Shown here: in pieces, positions 12,106 to 28,208 of the stretch
How the letters are laid out: the number at the start of each line of letters is the position of its first letter
Position numbering within the stretch: the stretch's first letter is position 1
IMG/VR virus record: IMGVR_UViG_3300025133_000066
Span: 1 to 64,000 of that record
Origin: a virus
Direction: 5' to 3' (one strand)
DNA: 64,000 nucleotides
Notes under the pieces: generated by a model
The model's input: only the letters and a program-made list of their open reading frames with translations
Told to the model about the DNA's origin: nothing
Databases searched by the model: none
Translations under genes and position numbers: made by a program

Positions 12106-13821
12106 CTATGACAAATCTTGAACGACGACCAAGCCGTACATATCCGGGCGGACCATCTTCTTGGCATATCGAGTCATGACGCCTTTGCGCGGCACGAAGT
12201 CCTCGGTACCGAAGATTGTTGGAGTCATCTGGAGAGGTACATACGGTGCGTACACATATCCGCTTTCGAGGAAAGAAGAACCTTTACGTCCTGCGAGAAC
12301 AACGTTCCGTGGGAAGTAAGGATCGACGTAAACGTCAAACTTCTTGCTCAAAGAGCCGACTTTAACAGCACCAACTTGACCACGATCATCATCGTGAGTC
12401 ACGGCACCACGGAATCCAGCGGTAAACTCAAGGAGGTTAGCAACTTCAGGTGAACACACGATGAAGTTAGCGCCGCCTCGAAGGGTCTTACGGTGAATTT
12501 GGGCCGAGACATCATTAATGGTCTCAATCAAGGTTTCATACCACTCGGATACATTACCCGTGAAGTCAGGAAACCCACTAGTTGGAATTAGTGGTGCACC
12601 AGTTGTCCGATTTACAAACTTACCAGGAAGTCGTGACCAGAACAAGGTTTCAGCAGTAGCACCCTTCACGAGATCTTCCAAGATTTCTTGGTCGATTTCA
12701 AGAGCGATGTGCTCGGACAGAATTGAGGTCAATTCGACTTCGGCATCCAAGTTATGGTATGCGTTCAAGTCTTGAGCCAATTCTGGTGTCCATTTCGCTT
12801 TGAGTTTCTTGGTCTTCGCAGTGACAGCCACAGAATCAACCTTGATGTCAATTTCTGGAATTGCCGCATTGTTTTCCAATCCCCATGTATCTAGACCAGA
12901 TACAGAACCAACCGCGCCAATGGCGGCGAAGTTGTCATCAATAACAAATGATGCTGAATTCTGTAAAACAAGGTCGGCTGCGCAGGCGTTGGCAGATGCG
13001 AGCCCTGCGTTAACCAGTAAGACAGAACCAGCAGTATCGGGGTCATCACGAGTCAGGCGTCTGACTTGATTAACATCGACAACACCGGCTGCATCGTTAA
13101 GAGTCACAGTGACGAGATCTTTAACGTTAAACTGACCGGCGGTGAGGGTTGCCAGAGGCAAAGTTGAAACACAAGCAAAAGAGCCTGATTCCAAGTCTGG
13201 ATCAAAGCGGACTAGGCGATCACCGTGCAATGCGAGAGCGATGCCGGCGGCTGTGTTGCCCGACCAGTCGCCTGGAACTCCAGAGCCGACTGTACCTGAT
13301 GCAAAATCGGCCAATGTGAAGTTGGCGGATCCTGTTGGACTTGAATACCCATTGTTCAAAGAATAATAGCTTTGTTCAGCGAGATCGCCAGCAAGTGAAA
13401 CACCGCCAGTGATTTGTGAAGCGACGACACCACCACCGTATATCGAAGTATTGGCAAGAGTATCAAGGCGTGCACGATCGTAGGTGAAATCCAGGAAGAA
13501 AATGAGTCCAGAAGGAAGGCTCATTGGTTGAACACTAACAAGATCGTTAGCGATTAGGCCGCCGAATACTCGACGGACAATAGGAAAGGCGACGGAAGCA
13601 AAACCTTCAACATCTCCAGAGGGTGAACCAGCCATAGTAGAAGCCTCACGAAGTAGTTCCTTCGCTTGGTTTTCTAGCAATGCTGCCATCCCATATTTAG
13701 CACGTTCGTTCCCGAGTCCCTCTAAAAGTCCAGTCTTTTCCCACTTGGAGAGAAGAGCAGATCCTTCTTTAGATAGATCGCGACGAACAATACCTTCAGT
13801 TAATTTTTTAAGTATAGACAT
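12106..13821 (-). CDS. gp23: Major capsid protein
   Basis: VSVQPMSLPSGLIFFLD, KLKAKWTPELAQDLNAYH, DAEVELTSILSE, GYVYAPYVPL, PRKGVMTRY. Confidence 0.97.
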   Translation of the reverse strand: MSILKKLTEGIVRRDLSKEGSALLSKWEKTGLLEGLGNERAKYGMAALLENQAKELLREASTMAGSPSGDVEGFASVAFPIVRRVFGGLIANDLVSVQPMSLPSGLIFFLDFTYDRARLDTLANTSIYGGGVVASQITGGVSLAGDLAEQSYYSLNNGYSSPTGSANFTLADFASGTVGSGVPGDWSGNTAAGIALALHGDRLVRFDPDLESGSFACVSTLPLATLTAGQFNVKDLVTVTLNDAAGVVDVNQVRRLTRDDPDTAGSVLLVNAGLASANACAADLVLQNSASFVIDDNFAAIGAVGSVSGLDTWGLENNAAIPEIDIKVDSVAVTAKTKKLKAKWTPELAQDLNAYHNLDAEVELTSILSEHIALEIDQEILEDLVKGATAETLFWSRLPGKFVNRTTGAPLIPTSGFPDFTGNVSEWYETLIETINDVSAQIHRKTLRGGANFIVCSPEVANLLEFTAGFRGAVTHDDDRGQVGAVKVGSLSKKFDVYVDPYFPRNVVLAGRKGSSFLESGYVYAPYVPLQMTPTIFGTEDFVPRKGVMTRYAKKMVRPDMYGLVVVQDLS

Positions 13822-13838: not shown

Positions 13839-14837
13839 TTATTTGTTTGTCTTTATTCCAGCCAGTATTTGCATCCTGTCCGCTTCCGGAGATTCAACAG
13901 TTCTGGCTGCTCTTCTAGGTAAAGTGGCAGAGGGTCTTTCGATGGTCTCGCGTAGTGATTGTGGACGTGCTTTACCTGATACACTTCCCACCGCGCTTTT
14001 TAGAGTTTCGAATATTACCTTTGCTTCTTCAATAGAATCTGATTTTGACAGAGCCTCGACAATTTTCTTTTTTTGCCGCTCATTCAAGGAGTTGTCTGTT
14101 AATACCTGATTCGTGTAAACTAATCTCGCATTTGAGAGATTAACTTTATTAAAACTTTCTTTTAAGATCTGGAGTGCTTTTATCATTTTTGTATTTTTTG
14201 ATTTGAGGTCTCTATTTGCCTCTCTAAGTCTTTCTCCAGCCTGTGTCAATGCTTTTGCCTGTGCTAGTGCCTCTGTTCCAGAGCGATGGGCCAAGGCCAA
14301 TTCTTCTTTGTAATCCATAATAGTTCCGGGGGTGCCAGCCCATCCGCTTTTTTCAGGAACGATATCGACGATGAGTTCTTCCAAGATCTCATCAAGATCT
14401 TCTAAATTTATTTCCTCTTCCAAGGTTACATCAACAGGGACAGATGAAGTCTCCGCTTCTTGGGACGAGGGTGGCTCGGCGCCCGGCACATCATCAACAA
14501 GATTTTCGTGTGGTGATGGTTCACCAATCAAATCTCCTTCTGCATCAGCAAGAGCTTCGGCCATATCTTTAAGCTCTTCCATACTTAATACAATTTCTTG
14601 CTCATCGATTGATTCTGGTGGTGCACCAGCAAGAGGAATACTATCTTCCAAGGAAGTAGATAATCCCATTCCATCCTCAACACCAAGGGCAAGCTCATCG
14701 TCTTGCTCTAACAAGTTTTCCACCGCCTCTTTAATGTCGGTTGAATATTTATTCAAAATTGCAGATTCAGCATTTTTAATGGCTGCCTCTTTTAAAGCTG
14801 CTGCATCAATTATCGCTTGTTCTAGTAATGAAGACAT
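13839..14837 (-). CDS. Prohead core/scaffolding protein (gp22-like)
   Basis: Acidic coiled coil with many (L/I)xE sites; C-terminal RMQILAGI; directly upstream of the capsid gene. Confidence 0.75.
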   Translation of the reverse strand: MSSLLEQAIIDAAALKEAAIKNAESAILNKYSTDIKEAVENLLEQDDELALGVEDGMGLSTSLEDSIPLAGAPPESIDEQEIVLSMEELKDMAEALADAEGDLIGEPSPHENLVDDVPGAEPPSSQEAETSSVPVDVTLEEEINLEDLDEILEELIVDIVPEKSGWAGTPGTIMDYKEELALAHRSGTEALAQAKALTQAGERLREANRDLKSKNTKMIKALQILKESFNKVNLSNARLVYTNQVLTDNSLNERQKKKIVEALSKSDSIEEAKVIFETLKSAVGSVSGKARPQSLRETIERPSATLPRRAARTVESPEADRMQILAGIKTNK

Positions 14838-17882: not shown

Positions 17883-17892
17883 TATAAATAGT
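17883..17892 (-). promoter_or_regulatory. Candidate late-promoter motif ACTATTTATA (representative copy)
   Basis: Same ACTAWTTA motif or a one-base variant just upstream of starts at about 4704, 6399, 9320, 12027, 14868, 15344, 17323, 28199, 33776, 34448, 36123 and 38162. Confidence 0.65.
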
Positions 17893-17904: not shown

Positions 17905-18327
17905 CTAAATCATGTTTTTCCAGTTCTTTCCGCCACCAATTGCCATGATTCCACTTATATCGACACCCGGATCGTTTGCTGCATAAGTTGCTAAAGGGCC
18001 CTGGGCCGGAGATCCGCCAGGAGACCCCCCTTTGTGGAGGGGTTCAACATCTTCAAAAATTCCTTTAAATCCGCTGCCGAGGGATTCTTCAAGCTTTCTC
18101 TTTTTTTCCGTCATTGCAGCATGTGCTTCTTCTTGGAGTTCCACACGCTGTCTTGAGAAGTCGTGTTCTGGCTCTGATGCCTTGGATTCAACGATTGTTT
18201 GCTGAGAGCCAATACCCAGTGCGACTTCTTTAATTAAATTTGACAAAATACCCTCTTCAAAGATTACTTCCTTGATGCATTCTTTGATAAGAGGTTTTAA
18301 TATTTTCTTAAATTCATTCTTTTTCAT
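17905..18327 (-). CDS. Hypothetical head-module protein; likely start MKKNEF at 18327
   Basis: ATGA overlap with the upstream stop; N-terminal LKPLIKECIKE resembles the leader family. Confidence 0.65.
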   Translation of the reverse strand: MKKNEFKKILKPLIKECIKEVIFEEGILSNLIKEVALGIGSQQTIVESKASEPEHDFSRQRVELQEEAHAAMTEKKRKLEESLGSGFKGIFEDVEPLHKGGSPGGSPAQGPLATYAANDPGVDISGIMAIGGGKNWKNMI

Positions 18328-18686: not shown

Positions 18687-19298
18687 TTAATTTCCCAGTA
18701 TATTGTTTAAAGCTCTATTAATTCTATCTGCTTTTGTAAAAATATTTGGCTCTTTATATTGCTTGCCTTCCTGCAAATTCATGAAGGCGTTTGGTGTACT
18801 TGGCTCCGAAACAAAATCAAAACAAATAAGTTGAAAATCATCCTCGACCATTGTTCCTTGAGTGCTTTCACGAACAGAACCAAGGCCTCGTGACGAAATA
18901 CCAAGTTGGACTCCCGATTCAACGAGGGATCTTAGGATTCCGCCGGCTGGGGTGTTAAGAACCTTAACGGTTCCCATAACTTTTGGGCCGTCTGCCCAAA
19001 TATTGGTAACCATGTGGCTAGCATTTCTTAAATTAATGACAGAATCATCTGGATGATCAAGTTCGCCAAGGGCTCGCTTTTCTTTGACAAGCTTTTGGTA
19101 TGTCTTAACCTCCCTCATAAGGGTCTTTTGAGGATAAACCCTCCCATTGCCATTCTGGACATCGCAGTGCTGCATAAGGCCAGTTAAATACATGGCATTG
19201 TTTTCTCTTATATCTCTCTTCTCGGCCTCTGTCAGCAGATCTTGACAAACGCCCCCCTCACAAAGAGCATAATATTCTCTCAATAAAACTTTACTCAT
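18687..19298 (-). CDS. gp21: Prohead core protease
   Basis: NGNGRVYP, ALGELDHP, ASH, LNTPAG, LGISSRGLGS, DFVSEPS. Confidence 0.95.
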   Translation of the reverse strand: MSKVLLREYYALCEGGVCQDLLTEAEKRDIRENNAMYLTGLMQHCDVQNGNGRVYPQKTLMREVKTYQKLVKEKRALGELDHPDDSVINLRNASHMVTNIWADGPKVMGTVKVLNTPAGGILRSLVESGVQLGISSRGLGSVRESTQGTMVEDDFQLICFDFVSEPSTPNAFMNLQEGKQYKEPNIFTKADRINRALNNILGN

Positions 19299-19666: not shown

Positions 19667-20053
19667 TTACCGCAGAGCTTCTAAAAACTGCTCTTCGCCG
19701 TATTTGGTGAGAAATGCTTTTATGGCTTTTAAATAGTCTTCGATCGTGTAATCTCCACTGACCATCAAGTCGGACTCAAGATCGTCATATCCCGGAGCCT
19801 CACCATCTGCGGGCATGTCCTTAAGCCAATGATCTTCATCTTCTTCTTCAATCGCGGCCTCCAACTTGTCGAACAATTGTTGTTTTAAATTAAATAATTT
19901 ACTAGAATCAGCAGTAGATCTAGTATCCTGTGGTTCTGAGCCTCTTCCGATGCCCATCTCCCGGTTCATTCCGCCCATCATTTTAGTTTCTGACAGGACG
20001 TTTCTAACCTCTTCTTTAATAATCTTTCTCAATTGTTTTGATGTAAGTTTCAT
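19667..20053 (-). CDS. Leader-bearing acidic protein (putative internal head protein)
   Basis: N-terminus MKLTSKQLRKIIKEEVRNVLSE. Confidence 0.65.
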   Translation of the reverse strand: MKLTSKQLRKIIKEEVRNVLSETKMMGGMNREMGIGRGSEPQDTRSTADSSKLFNLKQQLFDKLEAAIEEEDEDHWLKDMPADGEAPGYDDLESDLMVSGDYTIEDYLKAIKAFLTKYGEEQFLEALR

Positions 20054-20598
20054 TTTTCTTTTCCTTCAAGCATGTAGCTCATCCAATATGGCTGATAAGT
20101 ATATCCGGGCTTGATTGAACCCTTTTCAGAGGCTTGCGGCACTTCACCAAGTTCTGTAGAGTCTTGATCTGTCGGATGTGTATAATAATTGTCAAGCATT
20201 TGTTCATAATCATCGATGTAATCATAATATGGTTTTTCTTCTTTTAAGAACTTATAAATACCATAAATTGTATAATCTACTGGATTTATTTCTTTATTTT
20301 TAGAAGTCGGAATTAAACCCTCCAATGATCCATAAACGCTGCCTCCTCTGATTGACTCATATTCGACAACACCATTTCGTTTTAAAAATTCAAATAGTCT
20401 ATTTTGAGCCTCGTAAACGGTTTCAGAATAATCATTCTTGGCAAAAGTTACAACCTTGCTCTTAGTCGGCATAATTACGATATCCATCTCTTCGTGATCA
20501 AAGATCATAATATTTCCATCAAGAGATTTTCTAGCTTTTAATTCTAAAGTAATTTTCTCTTGGCGCGCTGCTTTTCCAATCTGGATTGTAATTGCCAT
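20050..20598 (-). CDS. Hypothetical protein (182 aa)
   Basis: Translationally coupled ORF in the head operon. Confidence 0.7.
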   Translation of the reverse strand: MAITIQIGKAARQEKITLELKARKSLDGNIMIFDHEEMDIVIMPTKSKVVTFAKNDYSETVYEAQNRLFEFLKRNGVVEYESIRGGSVYGSLEGLIPTSKNKEINPVDYTIYGIYKFLKEEKPYYDYIDDYEQMLDNYYTHPTDQDSTELGEVPQASEKGSIKPGYTYQPYWMSYMLEGKEK

Positions 20599-21417
20599 TT
20601 AAGCCAGTTCCTTAACGAGACCTTGAATTTTTAAAATATCATGAACAAATTTATTATCCAAGACTCTCTTTGATGTCGTTTCCAAAATTTTAATAACTTT
20701 TTTTGTCTTTTCCACCATATCTTGATCATTTTTGATTTCTTTCAAATTAAGAGAATTTTTGACGATATTTGTAAGTCTGGGGATTTCCTCATTCAAAAAC
20801 ATCTTCAATTCGATACCGTGATCAGCAAAGGAACCGATATATTTACTCAATAATTCTTTTTGTTCTTTTATTAGCTTATTAGAATACTTCTCATTAAACT
20901 TTTGAACAAATGTTTTATAAGTTAGGTTGTCAATTGGTTTTAAAAATTCTTTTTCGCGCTCTTCTTCGGTAATCATAATGTTGATCATATGATTTTCCAA
21001 CAATACTCTTTGTTTTGTTTTTACTTTTGGATTAAAAATTTGAAAAACTGTTGCCAAATCTCTATAATTTGGAATAAAATTGGAAAATGCCTCTGGAGAT
21101 ATAAATTTATTTATTTTGTCGATTATCGCCGTCTGTTCTTTGAAAAGCTCTCGATGATTGATAGTCTTTTTCTGCATTCTTGATTCGAAAATTAATCTTT
21201 CCGCTGTATGTCTCTCGACGTTTTTGGTGTCCAGAATTGATTTATAAATATCCATATCCTTAGCCAAAACAGTATTTCCCCTAAAGTGTTCCTTAATGAG
21301 CTTCATAATAATTTTTTTCTTATTATCATTTTTTTCCATAATGGTTTTGGCCAGTTCCCTGATTAGCACCTCGAAAATAAAAGCGCTATTGCGCTTCTTA
21401 TTGTGTTTCATTTTCAT
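20599..21417 (-). CDS. Hypothetical helical protein next to the portal (272 aa)
   Basis: Overlaps the portal stop; long ORF. Confidence 0.7.
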   Translation of the reverse strand: MKMKHNKKRNSAFIFEVLIRELAKTIMEKNDNKKKIIMKLIKEHFRGNTVLAKDMDIYKSILDTKNVERHTAERLIFESRMQKKTINHRELFKEQTAIIDKINKFISPEAFSNFIPNYRDLATVFQIFNPKVKTKQRVLLENHMINIMITEEEREKEFLKPIDNLTYKTFVQKFNEKYSNKLIKEQKELLSKYIGSFADHGIELKMFLNEEIPRLTNIVKNSLNLKEIKNDQDMVEKTKKVIKILETTSKRVLDNKFVHDILKIQGLVKELA

Positions 21418-23380
21418 CTATTTGAATCTCCAAGTTTTCTAATTCTGCGACTAAATCTTTAACTCTTGAGCTTGCTTCAAACAAAAGAGCTTCTTCTTTA
21501 TTATAATTAGGTTGTTTAGTTTCGTAAATACCCCGAGAAAGACCCATTAAATTTTCCATTCCCGGTACTATCTCTTTTGACTTTGGGAATGCTATGGCTG
21601 TATAGTTTTGTTCTCTCCCATTTCGGCCGTCGTGTCCCCTTAATTCTTTGGGAACATATCTCTTTCCTTTGGCCTTTTTTCCTAAAGAATTTTTAGTATA
21701 TCGGCGGTTTCTATCGTCACGATCATCATTTCGCTTCGCTGGGGCTGCCAAAAGGGGGCCTCCCCCCTCTTCACCGCCAAGGTCTTCACCGCCGCCGAGA
21801 TCGCCAAGATCCCCGCCGCCAAGATCCCCAAGGTCTTCACCGCCGCCAAGATCCCCAAGATCACCGCCGCCAAGATCCCCAAGATCACCGCCGCCGAGAT
21901 CCCCAATCCCTCCAGCAGCGGCTTCGCCGGCAGATTCTGCTGCGGCATTAAGTTCTGCTTCATATTTTCTATCGTGGAACATTTCTCTTTGGTTTCTAAC
22001 AAACTCCTCTTCGGAAAGACTAAAAATGTTTTGAGCAATCCAACGACGGCTAAAAAAGTTTTCGGTGGCGCCGCTGGCAATATCAAATTTTGATTTCCAG
22101 TGCTCCAATTCTTGAAGTTCGGCAATTTTGGATGGATTATTTAACTTTAATCGGAAACTTACTAAATCATCGCCTCTAAATCCCAAAGTATATAAATGAA
22201 CGATTCCAATCTTTTCCAACTCGGCAATAACAGAGCGCTGTAGTCTTTGGATGGTTCTTGCGAAGCGAACATCTTTTTGTGCAAGTGTTGTCCTATCCTC
22301 CACACTTTCTGTATCACTTGACAAATATGCGGACGGTATCTTTATCGCAGAGAACATTTTGTCTCGAAGATATTTCACATCATCAATATCACCAGTAAAT
22401 TGACCGCCAGGAAGTGACTCAATTTTAGATGATTCTCCTCCTCTAATTGGAACAAAATAGTCTTCTTCAACCGAAAGAGGGTTATATCTCAAATCGACTC
22501 TTCCCGTATTCGCATCAACAACCTGATTTCGTTTCATAGATGTAATTGTCTTTTGAATGAAGGTTTCTACATCTTGCGGGGCAATATTTCCGACATCGAT
22601 ATAAAAAACTCTTCGTTCTGCTGAACGGACAATCCGATAAGCCATCATTGCATCTTCCATAAGAACCAACTGACGCCAAATACGTCGAGCAGATTCCATC
22701 ACGGAGGTACCATATGGGGAATATTTGTCATTTCCAAGTATTCGGAAATGAGCAATTTGCCAATTTTCAAAAGTCATACCAGCAGAGTTCCACTGGTATT
22801 GGACGTAGTTTGGATTAGTAGGATCTTCGCCTTCCATCCTTTCAATCTCTTTCAGTGGGATTGGGATGACAGATTTTACACCGATACGGTCATCAATATC
22901 CATATAAAGAATAAAATCTCCGAATTTGCACATTGAGCGACACCATCCAAACAAATTATGATTAATATTTAAAACATTTTCATAAAGAGAGCGAAGAACC
23001 GCTTTGATTTCTTCGTTTGGGCACTCAATATCCATCATAGGAGAAAGAGCAGAGTGTGTTGTCATTTCATCAGCATAAATATCCATTGCGGAGGCCAATT
23101 CTGGCATATATTCCATTTGTTCATAATCAATATATCTCTCGGCTCTATTTTGTTGAGCCATGATCTTCGAATGCATGACATCAAAGGGGCTATATTCTGA
23201 TTTTTTAAATTGTTGACCACTTGCTGATCTGAAATCTGTTGAATATTTGTCAAGCGCCGTTCTTCGAATCTTTCGATTCATCTGGGTACGCCAGTTTACG
23301 ATTGGACCCGAAAATAATCTCGTTAATCTCCTAAAAAGTTCTGATTGTGAGTTATTGGGGTTTTTCTTTTGGTCGGCCAT
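21398..23380 (-). CDS. gp20: Portal protein
   Basis: ARRIWRQLVLMEDAMMAYRIVRSAERRVFYIDVGN, EDYFVP, IESLPGG, DIDDVKY. Confidence 0.96.
   Translation of the reverse strand: MADQKKNPNNSQSELFRRLTRLFSGPIVNWRTQMNRKIRRTALDKYSTDFRSASGQQFKKSEYSPFDVMHSKIMAQQNRAERYIDYEQMEYMPELASAMDIYADEMTTHSALSPMMDIECPNEEIKAVLRSLYENVLNINHNLFGWCRSMCKFGDFILYMDIDDRIGVKSVIPIPLKEIERMEGEDPTNPNYVQYQWNSAGMTFENWQIAHFRILGNDKYSPYGTSVMESARRIWRQLVLMEDAMMAYRIVRSAERRVFYIDVGNIAPQDVETFIQKTITSMKRNQVVDANTGRVDLRYNPLSVEEDYFVPIRGGESSKIESLPGGQFTGDIDDVKYLRDKMFSAIKIPSAYLSSDTESVEDRTTLAQKDVRFARTIQRLQRSVIAELEKIGIVHLYTLGFRGDDLVSFRLKLNNPSKIAELQELEHWKSKFDIASGATENFFSRRWIAQNIFSLSEEEFVRNQREMFHDRKYEAELNAAAESAGEAAAGGIGDLGGGDLGDLGGGDLGDLGGGEDLGDLGGGDLGDLGGGEDLGGEEGGGPLLAAPAKRNDDRDDRNRRYTKNSLGKKAKGKRYVPKELRGHDGRNGREQNYTAIAFPKSKEIVPGMENLMGLSRGIYETKQPNYNKEEALLFEASSRVKDLVAELENLEIQIDENETQ
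21771..21913 (-). repeat. Coding tandem repeat, 24/27-bp units encoding GGG(E)DLGDL, in the portal C-terminal tail
   Basis: Repeated ccgccgccaagatccccaagatca-like units, about 5-6 copies. Confidence 0.9.
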
Positions 23381-23383
23381 TCT

Positions 23384-24973
23384 TTATCCTTTTATTAACC
23401 AAGAATATTGTTCATAATCTTCTTTTGCTTTAAACATCTTCTCATCTAATGCTTCTTTTCTATTATATCCCTGCATTCCTGGGATTGTTGTATTAATTTT
23501 TGTATTAACTCTAATCATGGAATCCAAACACGCCTTTTTATATTCTAATTCTCTCTTATTAACACTCAATGCTGTATCCCTCACCCAACAACCAATTGCT
23601 AATGCCATAATAAGGTCATCATTATATCCCCTCATCGCCTGAGGTTTGCCATTGTGCCAAATAAAAGTTCGCAATTCGTTAGAAAAGCGAACCGAATATA
23701 CTTTAATTAGTTTGTTTCTAATGAATTCTTCTAATTTTGCAACGATAAGAGGTCGGGTTTTTAAAGATGTTGTAAATCCTGGGACAGCAGAGTTGTTCGT
23801 TGCTCCCTGGTGGCTATCTACATATTCATGGGTACCCTTTATCGAATAATATAAATTCGGATATTGCAACTCAATTAATTTTTCCAAAACGGAAATGCCA
23901 ATGCCAACATTTTCAACAACCAACAAACAATTACCATATTCTTTGCCAGCCTGCATTAAAATGCTGGAATACATATCTAAACTGGGTTTTCCTTGATACT
24001 CTGCTATAACTTCCATTGTATCTAATTTGATGATGTGAAAAACAGAATAATCTGCCCCATCTCCTCTTGCGACATCGGCAACAAGGAGGTAAGTGCATTC
24101 GGGATTATATTCTTCCCAAATCCACATATTTCTGTCAAAACTTGTTCTGTATTTAGGATCTTTAACGTTCGTTTCTACCCACGCGATATCATCCGGATGA
24201 ATAATTGTCTCGCCCGATGTATTGAAGTTACATTCAAGCTCCTGAGCGATCTCTCGTCTGGACATATTTCTTGTTTCTTTCTCAAACCATTCCTGATCTC
24301 GGTCAGGGTGAACGTCCCAATTCAGCACAACGGGGTGAAAGTCGTTTGACCCCTCCGCTGCCTCGCTATATGTCTTGTGAAACCAGTTTCCAACACCATT
24401 TGGAGTAGAAAGAGCGATCACTCGACCACCAGTTGAAATTGTAGGATACAGGCCGGCCCAAAGCTCGCTTAGGTTTTCAACGTGTGCGGCCTCATCAATC
24501 ACCAAAAGAGAAAGTGCTTCGGAACGACCAGCATCGCCGGAAGTTGAGGCTGCTTGAATTTGTGAACCGTTGGAAAGCTCGAAAGATGCCCTATTATCAA
24601 TTGATATATTGGCGATAAGAAGAAAGTCTGGGACATTTTTCATAATTGCCTTAACTTTTTTGACAAGATTGGCCGCTGTTTTGAATTTTGTGGCCATAAC
24701 AAGAATGTTCTTGTCTCTATGAAACAGCATCATCCAAACAATATAGCCAGCAGCAATAGTTGAGATGCCCAACTGGCGTGCTTTGAGGATTACATTAAAG
24801 CGGTAATCATTAAAATCTGTTAAAAGGTCAGCCTGATAGTCATAAGTCTTAAATGGAATAAGACCTTTGATCGGGTGTGAGATTCTTGCGTAATTATTTA
24901 CGAAGTAGATCGGATCTTTTCCACACTTTAGTATTTCAGCTACTATTTCCTTTTTGGAGAGTGTGTATGACAT
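23384..24973 (-). CDS. gp17: Terminase large subunit
   Basis: LKARQLGIST Walker A, LLVIDEAA Walker B, LSTPNG, ADVARGDGADYS, NDDLIMA. Confidence 0.96.
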   Translation of the reverse strand: MSYTLSKKEIVAEILKCGKDPIYFVNNYARISHPIKGLIPFKTYDYQADLLTDFNDYRFNVILKARQLGISTIAAGYIVWMMLFHRDKNILVMATKFKTAANLVKKVKAIMKNVPDFLLIANISIDNRASFELSNGSQIQAASTSGDAGRSEALSLLVIDEAAHVENLSELWAGLYPTISTGGRVIALSTPNGVGNWFHKTYSEAAEGSNDFHPVVLNWDVHPDRDQEWFEKETRNMSRREIAQELECNFNTSGETIIHPDDIAWVETNVKDPKYRTSFDRNMWIWEEYNPECTYLLVADVARGDGADYSVFHIIKLDTMEVIAEYQGKPSLDMYSSILMQAGKEYGNCLLVVENVGIGISVLEKLIELQYPNLYYSIKGTHEYVDSHQGATNNSAVPGFTTSLKTRPLIVAKLEEFIRNKLIKVYSVRFSNELRTFIWHNGKPQAMRGYNDDLIMALAIGCWVRDTALSVNKRELEYKKACLDSMIRVNTKINTTIPGMQGYNRKEALDEKMFKAKEDYEQYSWLIKG

Positions 24974-24976
24974 TGT

Positions 24977-25492
24977 TTATTCTTTGGCGAATCCGCCTTC
25001 TTTTAAGAATTTGTGGTAATTGACAGCCATCGTGTCGGTCACTGCCTCACCAAGGGTGGTAACCTGCTTCATTCCGCCAATCTTGTACATCTTGTGTGCT
25101 GTCACAAATGTTCTCACTCTTGATGTATTCTGGACAAGGCACTTTGCTTCGCCTTGTGGAGTGATTGAGAGTGATTTTCCAGTGATAGCCTTATATTCCT
25201 TCTTCAAAAAGTCTGCGATCTGTTGAATTTTGCGTTCGCATTCTTCCTCAAAGCCAACTGCATAAACAGAAGACAGGGCAACATTTGATTCATAGTTAAT
25301 TTGGAGCATGTCTCCGACAATTTTCACGCCGAAACCATCAGAAACCCGACTATCAATGATTGGGCAGCCCTCTTCCCGATTTAGACCAATCTTTTTGACA
25401 TCTCCGGTTACGAAGCGCTCGTCGTGGGATCCATCGTAGGCATTTGCTGCTGCCTGATTAATCCCTGTAATAATTTCTAATGTTGTAGCCAT
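24977..25492 (-). CDS. Hypothetical protein (171 aa)
   Basis: Coupled ORF directly upstream of the terminase. Confidence 0.7.
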   Translation of the reverse strand: MATTLEIITGINQAAANAYDGSHDERFVTGDVKKIGLNREEGCPIIDSRVSDGFGVKIVGDMLQINYESNVALSSVYAVGFEEECERKIQQIADFLKKEYKAITGKSLSITPQGEAKCLVQNTSRVRTFVTAHKMYKIGGMKQVTTLGEAVTDTMAVNYHKFLKEGGFAKE

Positions 25493-26179
25493 TTATTTAA
25501 TTCCTTTTTCTTTTTTATAAGAATTGTACTGAGCCAGGTGGGCGCCGGTAAGGCCCGGGTCCTCCGGGTTTACATATTTGTTTTTGATCATATCCTCGAT
25601 ATCACTCCTTTCGGAGCCGGGAGGCCTTAGGAGAATGTTCCTGATGTATTCTTCCACACTCTGACTGAACCACGCAACTTCATCTTCTTCGCGGTAGATC
25701 TGATTCAGGACTGGCAACGTTTTTGCCAGCCATGGCTCTTCTGTATATTGAGCGTCTCCTGCAAAAATCGCACGAAGGTGATTTACCATTTGTTTGGCCA
25801 ATTCTTCCCCGTGGGACTCCAGATATTTCTGGACACTACCCTTGCTGTCTTCCTCTTGCACATGTACAAAAGCGTGCTCCAACTCGGAATTGGGATCAAA
25901 AAGAGCCGGGAGTTCATCGATGATCTGGTCTTGGAAGTGTTTTTTGTCGTCGGCGAGCTTTGTGGCCACTTCGGCGTCAGCGTCGGCCTTCAATGTGCTA
26001 GCCGCAGACAAATAATCTCCCCACCCTTCTTTCATCAAATTATTAATTTCTTCTTTAACGATATTAGCTAATTGTGATTTTGTAAGCTTAATTTTACCAC
26101 GAAGGTGAGGGCGCCGAACGGAGACATTTTTGATTTCTTCCTTGATGAGTTTTCTCAACTGTGATTTCGTAAGTTTCAT
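25493..26179 (-). CDS. Acidic protein with a duplicated leader (putative internal head protein)
   Basis: MKLTKSQLRKLIKEEI...KIKLTKSQLANIVKEEINNLMKE. Confidence 0.7.
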   Translation of the reverse strand: MKLTKSQLRKLIKEEIKNVSVRRPHLRGKIKLTKSQLANIVKEEINNLMKEGWGDYLSAASTLKADADAEVATKLADDKKHFQDQIIDELPALFDPNSELEHAFVHVQEEDSKGSVQKYLESHGEELAKQMVNHLRAIFAGDAQYTEEPWLAKTLPVLNQIYREEDEVAWFSQSVEEYIRNILLRPPGSERSDIEDMIKNKYVNPEDPGLTGAHLAQYNSYKKEKGIK

Positions 26180-26193
26180 AATTTTTTTCCTTT

Positions 26194-26463
26194 TTATAGA
26201 CTCTGAGTTAGGGCCTCTAGGACCTCTTCTTTTGTCATTCCAGATTGCAGTGCCAGAGCACCGATGGCAAGAAGAGCATCTCTAGCACTAGTCTTTGATG
26301 TCCCGAGATCTGGAAGCTCTCCAGATTCACCACCCAATTCAGCAGCCTTTCCCCAATATTTTTCTCCTTCCGTATCTCCGAAAGCGTCAGAGGGCGCGCC
26401 TTCGATAACCTTTCCAATCTCTTCTTTGATAATTTTTCTCAATTGAAATTTTGTAAGTTTCAT
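26194..26463 (-). CDS. Leader-bearing small protein; real start likely 26463
   Basis: AAGGAA SD then MKLTKFQLRKIIKEEIGKVIE. Confidence 0.65.
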   Translation of the reverse strand: MKLTKFQLRKIIKEEIGKVIEGAPSDAFGDTEGEKYWGKAAELGGESGELPDLGTSKTSARDALLAIGALALQSGMTKEEVLEALTQSL

Positions 26464-26467
26464 TATT

Positions 26468-26848
26468 TTATTCCTTTTCGGGGCGCCATCCAGACTTCCA
26501 CCTTTCCTCGCGACCTTCGACCCACTGAATGTAGCACTTAAAACAACAATCAAATTTTGTCATATAAACATCATCACGCGAATCAAAAGAATAAGAACGA
26601 CATGTTTGACAAATCCTATTATTGTCTTTATTAATTAGTTTTTTAGATATTAAAACTCCATCAACTTCTACTTTTTCATTATTTTCTCGATGTTTTATTT
26701 CTTTTTTGTGTAATTCGCGGATTTGCTGCTGATAATCTTTTTCTTTTTCATCATCCCAGTCGGCTTTTGGGTGCTGTATTGCTTCTTTCCCATATTTCTT
26801 AGAAATAGCATTTTCATATTTGGCAACTTCATTTAAGTCTTTTTTCAT
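26468..26848 (-). CDS. Hypothetical Zn-finger protein (126 aa)
   Basis: CQTC...CCFKC. Confidence 0.65.
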   Translation of the reverse strand: MKKDLNEVAKYENAISKKYGKEAIQHPKADWDDEKEKDYQQQIRELHKKEIKHRENNEKVEVDGVLISKKLINKDNNRICQTCRSYSFDSRDDVYMTKFDCCFKCYIQWVEGREERWKSGWRPEKE

Positions 26849-27276
26849 TTATTCACCGCATATGTTATTCCAATAGTTGCCCCGACACCAATTGCAAAGC
26901 CTCCGATAACACCCCAAATAAGGGCGTTCTTTCCAGGCTTCTTTCGGATGATCTTGTTTAATTGCTCGATTTCTGTGTTTTTTAAAACTAATGTTGAATT
27001 GAATCTTTCTCTTTCTGTGTCAATTGTAATATTTAGTTGATCAATTTTAAGTTGGCATTGTGCTTTTTGCTTTTGCAGTTCGAATCCGAGTTTTAAATCA
27101 TATTCTTCTTTTAGAAACTTGTGATTTGCCAATAATCTGGCTGTTGCCTCGGGATCAAATAATGTTCCAGTAAAGGGTGCTGCCTTTCCTTCTTGAATAA
27201 AGGTAAATTTGCCATCGGCAGCTTGTGCTGAATTTAAAAAACCAAAAAGAAACAATAATGTGATTTTACTCCACAT
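26845..27276 (-). CDS. Secreted coiled-coil protein with C-terminal TM helix (spanin-like?)
   Basis: Signal peptide ending AQA/AD, coiled coil, C-terminal ALIWGVIGGFAIGVGATIG; overlaps the upstream gene. Confidence 0.45.
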   Translation of the reverse strand: MWSKITLLFLFGFLNSAQAADGKFTFIQEGKAAPFTGTLFDPEATARLLANHKFLKEEYDLKLGFELQKQKAQCQLKIDQLNITIDTERERFNSTLVLKNTEIEQLNKIIRKKPGKNALIWGVIGGFAIGVGATIGITYAVNK

Positions 27277-27667
27277 ATTCAAATCCAAAAGCCTCCTCAA
27301 TTTCTCTGGCCAACTCCTCTGGCTGCTCGTCGAAATCTCTGATGAACTTTTTTATGTCTTTTTCTTTATTTTTGCTTAAATCGGCTACCGACTCATTATA
27401 TTTTTCTGTCAGATTTATCAGATCACGCTCAAATTTGGCTATAGCCTCTTCTCGGGCGGCCAACTCTTTTTGGTGGAGAGCTTCCAATGTTGCAATCTGC
27501 TCTTCATAGCTTGTACTCATTACATCCATCGACTTTTTGAGTGATGAATAATCATTTTTTGTTATAAAAAAGAGGATAATCATAATAACCAAGCCGACAC
27601 CTTGCCAGTTTTTAATTAAGAACATGCCGACCGACTTAAATAAATCTCCAATGTTGATATTAATCAA
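27266..27667 (-). CDS. Inner-membrane-anchored coiled-coil protein (i-spanin-like)
   Basis: N-terminal TM GVGLVIMIILFFI followed by a long coiled coil. Confidence 0.5.
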   Translation of the reverse strand: MININIGDLFKSVGMFLIKNWQGVGLVIMIILFFITKNDYSSLKKSMDVMSTSYEEQIATLEALHQKELAAREEAIAKFERDLINLTEKYNESVADLSKNKEKDIKKFIRDFDEQPEELAREIEEAFGFEYVE

Positions 27668-27671
27668 TTTT

Positions 27672-27974
27672 TTATTTTATCCTTGGGTGCCATTGACGAA
27701 ATATATTTTCTACTTCGTCTTCTGTAGCAGAAGGGGAAGCCCAATCAAAATTAATATCTTGAAGGTGTGTCAAAAATATATTTTTGGTGGCTATATGACC
27801 AACACTATCAGATAGTGGATTTTCACGAGAGAGTTCTATAGCTCTTTTCATAATTCCATCAACCTTGAATTTGTGTTCAAGACTGTCTCTTTCCTCTTCC
27901 TTTTCTTGATCGCTGATCATTTCATTAAGCCCCTCTTTGATGAGCCTTCTTAACTGGGATTCTGTTAACTTCAC
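27672..27974 (-). CDS. Leader-bearing protein (GTG start)
   Basis: MKLTESQLRRLIKEGLNE. Confidence 0.65.
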   Translation of the reverse strand: MKLTESQLRRLIKEGLNEMISDQEKEEERDSLEHKFKVDGIMKRAIELSRENPLSDSVGHIATKNIFLTHLQDINFDWASPSATEDEVENIFRQWHPRIK

Positions 27975-28178: not shown

Positions 28179-28208
28179 AAACCCTCCTTTTATACTCTAT
28201 AATTAGTC

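Follow-up and report, generated by a model that had tools for sequence, protein, structure and literature searches.

The first 64 kb of the viral record IMGVR_UViG_3300025133_000066 (78,290 bases in total; the 64-kb stretch is referred to here as the window) belong to an uncultured marine T4-like phage, and four genes on the minus strand of this window start with nearly the same residues, MKLTxxQLRxxIKE, which open a 22-residue leader carried by proteins that otherwise bear no relation to one another. We consider it probable that the leader directs its protein to the prohead in one manner or another. More tentatively, and with appreciably less confidence, we favour the specific reading that it is a T4-like capsid-targeting propeptide, from which the remainder of the protein (the cargo) would be trimmed, encapsidated and delivered together with the DNA as an effector. 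By analogy, the leader most likely represents the T4 capsid-targeting principle in a new form, with a longer tag that is not homologous to the one used by T4. The initial annotation of this DNA had described the shared leader and had proposed that it loads exchangeable effectors into the head; the observation is confirmed by the present analysis, and the interpretation is supported in part.

The leader genes of the window

The first of the four genes, encoding 128 aa (19667..20053, minus strand, as are the other three), has its leader at 19988-20053, ending V-L-S-E, ahead of a cargo with an isoelectric point (pI) of 4.3. It lies between a conserved 182-aa gene and a gene for a 95-aa membrane protein, just upstream of the prohead protease, and in an alignment of its homologs the leader is kept along with a conserved C-terminus of the cargo. 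The 228-aa gene (25493..26179) contains two leader copies, at 26114-26179 and 26027-26092, followed by a helical acidic cargo of 176 aa; the second copy, at residues 30-51, constitutes a fifth, internal leader. For the 89-aa gene (26194..26463, leader 26398-26463, cargo pI 4.2) the mechanically defined open reading frame extends back to a TTG at 26553; the ATG at 26463, for which there is an AGGA ribosome-binding site, is where the gene begins in relatives. The 100-aa gene (27672..27974, leader 27909-27974) lies between a 66-aa membrane protein and a 133-aa gene, and begins with GTG here and with ATG in the relatives L002 and L003. All four starts reported previously were upheld in this manner, with the internal copy as an addition.

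A profile made from the five copies scores its own members at E 1e-13 to 1e-24 and detects no further leader copy in the whole 78,290-base record. Relatives that share the head module measure 178,630 bases at 98% completeness and 190,479 bases at 100%. The record therefore probably represents only a fragment, approximately 40% of the genome, and the lack of further copies is valid for this fragment only. Past residue 22 the four cargos are unrelated, each falling into a separate BLAST cluster, and they are acidic (pI 4.2-5.3), in agreement with what had been noted from the sequence earlier; the four leader proteins have no match above threshold in Pfam, PHROG or NCBIfam. At the nucleotide level the leader copies share 62-82% of their positions and show 2-7 synonymous codon differences within codons 2-16, which argues that the leader is conserved as a protein, with selection acting on the peptide. 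Such an abundance of synonymous differences also rules out that the shared start stems from DNA that was recently duplicated or repeated.

The leader family and its cargo

Among 1.84 billion representative proteins searched, the leader profile matches 1,399 protein clusters from metagenomes at E <= 0.001, and 313 distinct copies give the consensus M-K-[LI]-T-K-S-Q-L-[RK]-x-I-I-K-E-E-[LIV]-x-x-[VLI]-[LM]-x-E. Conservation spans residues 1-22 and ends after residue 22. The (I/L)-x-E motif recognised by T4-type prohead proteases, whose presence in the leader had been claimed from the window alone, is borne out across the family: [ILV]-x-E, in the form Ile/Val-Lys-Glu, occurs at positions 12-14 in 98% of the 313 copies, and [LIVM]-x-E at positions 20-22 in 50%, with the next residue mostly G, A or S. 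The hydrophobic positions are consistent with a single amphipathic helix, and AlphaFold places a leader helix at residues 5-21/26, followed in the 128-aa protein by a low-confidence linker, in models of the 228-aa and 128-aa proteins that are of low confidence overall (mean predicted local distance difference test, pLDDT, of 49-50).

The leader is a portable module, as had been suggested, and the 301 cargo segments taken from 218 family proteins separate into 240 BLAST clusters, with a median cargo length of 95 aa. Homolog alignments reveal conserved motifs within cargo families. A Pfam match was obtained for only 5 of 150 family representatives, none of them recurrent, and nothing usable emerged from the ESM Atlas for the two cargos submitted to it. 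Internal [LI]-x-E sites number 2-3 in each leader protein, which is near expectation. The more ambitious part of the initial annotation, in which the cargos are injected anti-defence or host-takeover effectors, is unsupported, as the cargos contain no recognisable domain of either type (Pfam, PHROG and NCBIfam for the four in the window; Pfam for the 150 representatives) and are acidic, not basic like the internal proteins of T4.

Many proteins of the family hold two to four leaders, spaced ~128 residues apart. The internal copies, in metagenome proteins as well as at 26027-26092 of the window, mostly retain their Met, and this residue is preceded by E-N-K or similar. As E-N-K-M is what a ribosome-binding site and start (GGAGAAnAAA-ATG) yield when translated in frame, the multi-leader proteins look like fused tandem genes, and it may be that they retain internal starts. 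Leaders are on average more alike within a genome than between genomes (56% versus 47% identity; permutation p ~5e-4), a difference in which co-adaptation to a partner is inseparable from recent duplication. Use of the leader region as a query against longer proteins returned nothing significant; a literature search on the leader motif strings returned no paper, and a search by concept nothing relevant.

Prohead protease, capsid protein and core candidates

A prohead maturation protease of the T4 gp21 family is encoded at 18687..19298 (minus strand), as the initial annotation had it. The protein matches Pfam Peptidase_S77 with an E of 7.7e-31 and is 31% identical to T4 gp21, with GELDHP and GISSRG aligning to GELNHP and GVSSRG of the latter. 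The major capsid protein, of the T4 gp23 family (12106..13821, minus strand), presents at approximately residues 57-60 an L-R-E|A site, conserved in relatives, that aligns with the L-T-E|A at which T4 gp23 is cleaved, and this correspondence renders a T4-like specificity of the gp21-type protease plausible.

The three proteins of the record richest in [LI]-x-E all belong to the head module. The highest density is found in a conserved 140-aa protein, probably of the prohead core, encoded downstream of the protease (17905..18327, minus strand). A looser version of the leader had been described at its N-terminus, and this resemblance, though weak, is real (hhalign probability 41%, pairwise E 2.8e-4); the protein is undetectable in other leader-bearing lineages, and among 50,697 phage records tblastn detected neither the 140-aa nor the 228-aa protein in any cultured phage. 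Directly upstream of the major capsid gene lies a gene for a 332-aa protein of pI 4.5 (13839..14837, minus strand), a probable gp22-like scaffold with 17 [LI]-x-E sites where 7.9 are expected. This 332-aa protein matches T4 gp22 weakly (pairwise E 0.035) and is probably the main scaffold of the phage. Third in density is a conserved 272-aa basic helical protein encoded after the portal gene (20599..21417, minus strand), a possible core protein.

Cassette turnover among relatives

In this lineage the leader genes occupy variable slots among the backbone genes of the terminase-portal-protease module, and they are present or absent between relatives that are 90-100% identical. The clearest comparison is that of the 128-aa gene with its counterpart in L002, where the flanks are 97-100% identical: identity is 100% up to approximately leader codon 15, ~40% across the cargo and 100% again at the gene end, such that L002 carries a different cargo in this slot, with the breakpoint within the leader. 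The 228-aa gene is wholly absent from L002, between flanks that are ~100% identical, the 89-aa gene is absent from L018, and the 100-aa gene is wholly absent from L018, L013 and L020. The retention of a leader while the cargo differs indicates that the leader is the kept module and the cargo the exchangeable one, and leader DNA could plausibly serve as one homology arm for cargo exchange. Cargo variation at syntenic sites had been proposed as a check on the initial annotation, and it is observed here both as gain or loss of whole genes and as a swap.

Distribution

The leader is restricted to viral DNA. IMG/VR holds many leader-bearing contigs, several of them 180-293 kb in length with 10-25 copies each, often in tandem arrays. 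A narrow KLT pattern gave one match among 185,579 prokaryote species (one genome each), to JBAYGC010000019.1, a 26,622-base contig in a Patescibacteria metagenome-assembled genome (MAG). This contig has the same size and gene order as an IMG/VR viral contig, and is therefore probably a phage contig binned into the MAG; its gene order runs from two tail-sheath paralogs to leader genes, the sheath being annotated in the syntenic L022. In both L022 and L005, two adjacent tail-sheath paralogs of ~1,000 aa stand directly upstream of the leader genes, and a 553-aa HNH/homing-endonuclease-like gene follows.

LR756508.1, the 484-kb sequence of a distant uncultured phage, has ~12-13 leader-like genes, several with weak scores, on both sides of its protease gene. 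Within the same sequence (140000-172000) the S77 domain is part of a 574-aa protein and the portal homolog has 1,386 aa, both far longer than those of the window.

Comparison with known packaging systems

In T4, gp21 cuts after L/I-x-E, and a 10-residue tag brings internal proteins into the core (PMC9026906, PMC3012670); the internal proteins of T-even phages are diverse, and only their targeting sequence is conserved (PMC3012670). The capsid-targeting sequence (CTS) of IPI, IPII, IPIII and Alt, which is removed by gp21, is similar to the leader in being a short tag at the N-terminus of proteins that have nothing else in common. The likeness extends to the (I/L)-x-E at the end of the tag, to the encoding of a gp21-family protease and to the pairing of variable cargo with a constant tag, and the T4 internal-protein genes are likewise scattered in the genome. 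Furthermore, the T4 tag MKTYQEFIAE|A resembles the N-terminus of the T4 scaffold gp22, MLKEQLIAE|A (from NC_000866), to which the resemblance between the leader and the N-terminus of the 140-aa core-like protein forms a parallel. The two systems nonetheless differ in several respects. The leader has ~22 residues, while the T4 tag has 10 (IPII, IPIII) or 19 (IPI); its cargo is mostly acidic, while the mature T4 internal proteins are basic; and a genome may have up to ~25 leader genes, which frequently form tandem arrays and are frequently fused into proteins of 2-4 leaders, compared to the three internal proteins of T4. The leader family is found only in uncultured marine phages. On these grounds the leader is best described as an analogue, and not a homologue, of the T4 CTS.

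The giant phages phiKZ, 201phi2-1 and SPN3US, with their propeptide-bearing ejection and inner-body proteins, offer a further point of reference, as a diverged homolog of gp21 trims many of their head proteins by cutting after Glu, and their large genomes encode numerous packaged proteins (PMC9026906). They differ from the present case in that the cut falls at S/A-x-E, and PMC9026906 reports no conserved leader of 22 residues that their proteins would have in common.

Proposed function and alternatives

From these elements we infer a route of docking, cleavage, encapsidation and delivery. The leader would form one amphipathic helix by which a new protein docks onto the scaffolding core while the prohead assembles, probably because this helix mimics that at the N-terminus of a core protein. 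A cut by the gp21-type protease after Glu14 (I-K-E) and/or after the [LIVM]-x-E of positions 20-22 would then free the cargo within the head. The small and mostly acidic cargo would remain encapsidated, and at least some of it would exit with the DNA at infection. Conserved leader DNA would meanwhile act as a homology arm, by means of which cargo genes could be swapped, gained and lost as cassettes.

A number of observations weigh against this account. Comparison of the leader with the T4 IPI, IPII and IPIII propeptides (NC_000866) gave no significant similarity, the M-K start and the I-x-E end being all that is shared. The site ending at Glu22 is present in only half of the copies, and Glu14 is followed by a further Glu, compared to the Ala that is usual in T4. 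In the sampled set, 142 of 331 leader copies are internal. In relatives of 200-290 kb the arrays of 10-25 leader genes are 50-100 kb from the protease, and the L009 fragment has its leader genes among replication genes. No cultured phage with a leader was found by tblastn among the 50,697 phage records, the sole match being the uncultured LR756508.1. The account is favoured by the S77 protease that every one of the 12 large leader-bearing records tested encodes (completeness, estimated for 11 of these, is 57-100%), and leader-bearing records that lack it are fragments estimated to be 8-42% complete; these counts come from leader-bearing records only, S77 may be common in large marine phages generally, and co-occurrence is as such only a necessary condition. 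Last, the acidity of the cargo, with a pI below 6 in 71% of cargos versus 41% of neighbouring small genes, is that of the T4 scaffold gp22 (pI 4.6) and not that of the basic mature IPI-III (pI 9.0-9.7).

An acidic cargo would suit a filler of the prohead core no less than an injected effector. The leader may target the core, and the cargo be a dispensable and fast-evolving acidic scaffold or filler, comparable to T4 gp67, gp68 and gp22, that is degraded or expelled at packaging and never acts as an effector. We judge this to be unlikely. In its favour, apart from the pI, which also matches that of the 332-aa scaffold candidate (4.5), many cargos are short, without a Pfam domain and of low AlphaFold confidence, and leader genes adjoin those of the protease and scaffold. 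Like gp22, gp67 and gp68, the leader proteins are acidic and helical, are encoded beside the protease and contain L/I-x-E sites, and gp67 itself consists of a helical head with the sequence LIKEE and then an acidic tail. Unlike these T4 proteins, however, the leader proteins are dispensable and cassette-like, and gain and loss between near-identical phages is unusual for parts of an assembly. They are neither kept in all relatives nor rich in internal protease sites, as scaffold and core proteins would be, and it is the 140-aa, 332-aa and 272-aa proteins, enriched in [LI]-x-E, that better fit a core role. Moreover, the conserved motifs of cargo families suggest folded and selected functions, and 10-25 different fillers in one genome would be hard to explain.

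It is similarly improbable, in our estimation, that the leader is unrelated to the capsid and is instead the shared interaction helix of a cytoplasmic multigene family devoted to host takeover, serving in oligomerisation, in binding of a host or phage factor or as a degradation signal, with I-x-E arising as a by-product of a Lys/Glu-rich amphipathic helix. Conservation of the leader stops at a Glu and a small residue, as it would at a processing site. Leader genes stand within the head module in this lineage and flank the protease in LR756508.1, the core-like protein beside the protease has a leader-like N-terminus, and an S77 protease accompanies the leader in every large genome tested, all of which speaks against a cytoplasmic helix. 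On the other hand, such a helix would accommodate the big tandem arrays far from head genes in jumbo relatives, the placement among replication genes in L009 and the many internal copies; I-K-E-E is frequent in charged helices, and the likeness of leaders within a genome would fit any genome-specific partner, or simply recent duplication. A leader that serves as the recognition sequence of a modifying enzyme, in the manner of a ribosomally synthesised and post-translationally modified peptide, is a highly improbable third explanation; the one thing in its favour is the general arrangement, in which a single leader serves many cargos, and no enzyme gene recurs beside leader genes across lineages. 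A radical-SAM recognition tag in particular was rejected, radical-SAM genes being present in one of the five leader-bearing records tested, four of which are 98-100% complete.

If the leader is a capsid address, more than 1,000 unannotated protein families in abundant ocean phages become candidate virion cargo, and a simple sequence rule would point to proteins acting in the first seconds of infection. The capsid-targeting principle of T4 would in that case be widespread, with a different and longer tag, and coupled to cassette exchange, and the 22-residue tag could be tried as a packaging signal for engineered T4-like capsids. A bolder formulation, which we regard as possible but doubtful, is that one 22-residue tag, in use across uncultured T4-like and jumbo phages of the sea that form a single clade (1,399 protein clusters or more), loads up to ~25 rapidly exchanged acidic proteins into each virion, that these are delivered with the DNA and perhaps act as DNA mimics or in anti-defence, and that the DNA of the tag is a recombination handle. 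Were this so, virion-delivered effectors would have a natural plug-in system, on a far greater scale than that of T4 with its three internal proteins. Should the leader prove not to be a capsid address, it would still rank among the best-conserved short motifs of marine phage proteins.

Genomic setting of the leader genes

Nearly all long open reading frames of the window are on the minus strand, and the record is encountered again in many marine metagenomes. The backbone that is common to the relatives consists of an SbcCD-like gene, genes of 66, 133, 151, 126 and 171 aa, terminase, portal, genes of 272, 182 and 95 aa, the protease and the 140-aa gene. The large terminase, of T4 gp17 type (23384-24973, minus strand), has its best cultured relative in Flavobacterium phage immuto, at 46% identity, and together with the portal of T4 gp20 type (21398-23380, minus strand) it forms a stretch of backbone (21398..24973) between leader-gene slots. 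The holin-like and spanin-like labels given to neighbouring genes in the initial annotation find little support; 27266-27667 has a weak PHROG match to an Rz-like spanin (E 5.7e-4), and the 66-aa gene has no match.

Upstream of the 66-aa gene is a promoter-like motif, ACTAATTAT (28199..28207, minus strand). Its general form, ACTAWTTAT, occurs in 11 copies where 2.1 are expected, every copy on the minus strand, and would presumably function as a promoter. Along the direction of transcription the next copy follows at 17884-17892, and these two copies bracket all four leader genes and the head genes, which possibly form one transcription unit. Within the portal gene, the part encoding the C-terminal region (~21700-21870, minus strand) specifies successive repeats of G-D-L-G / G-G-G-E-D-L, ahead of a basic tail.

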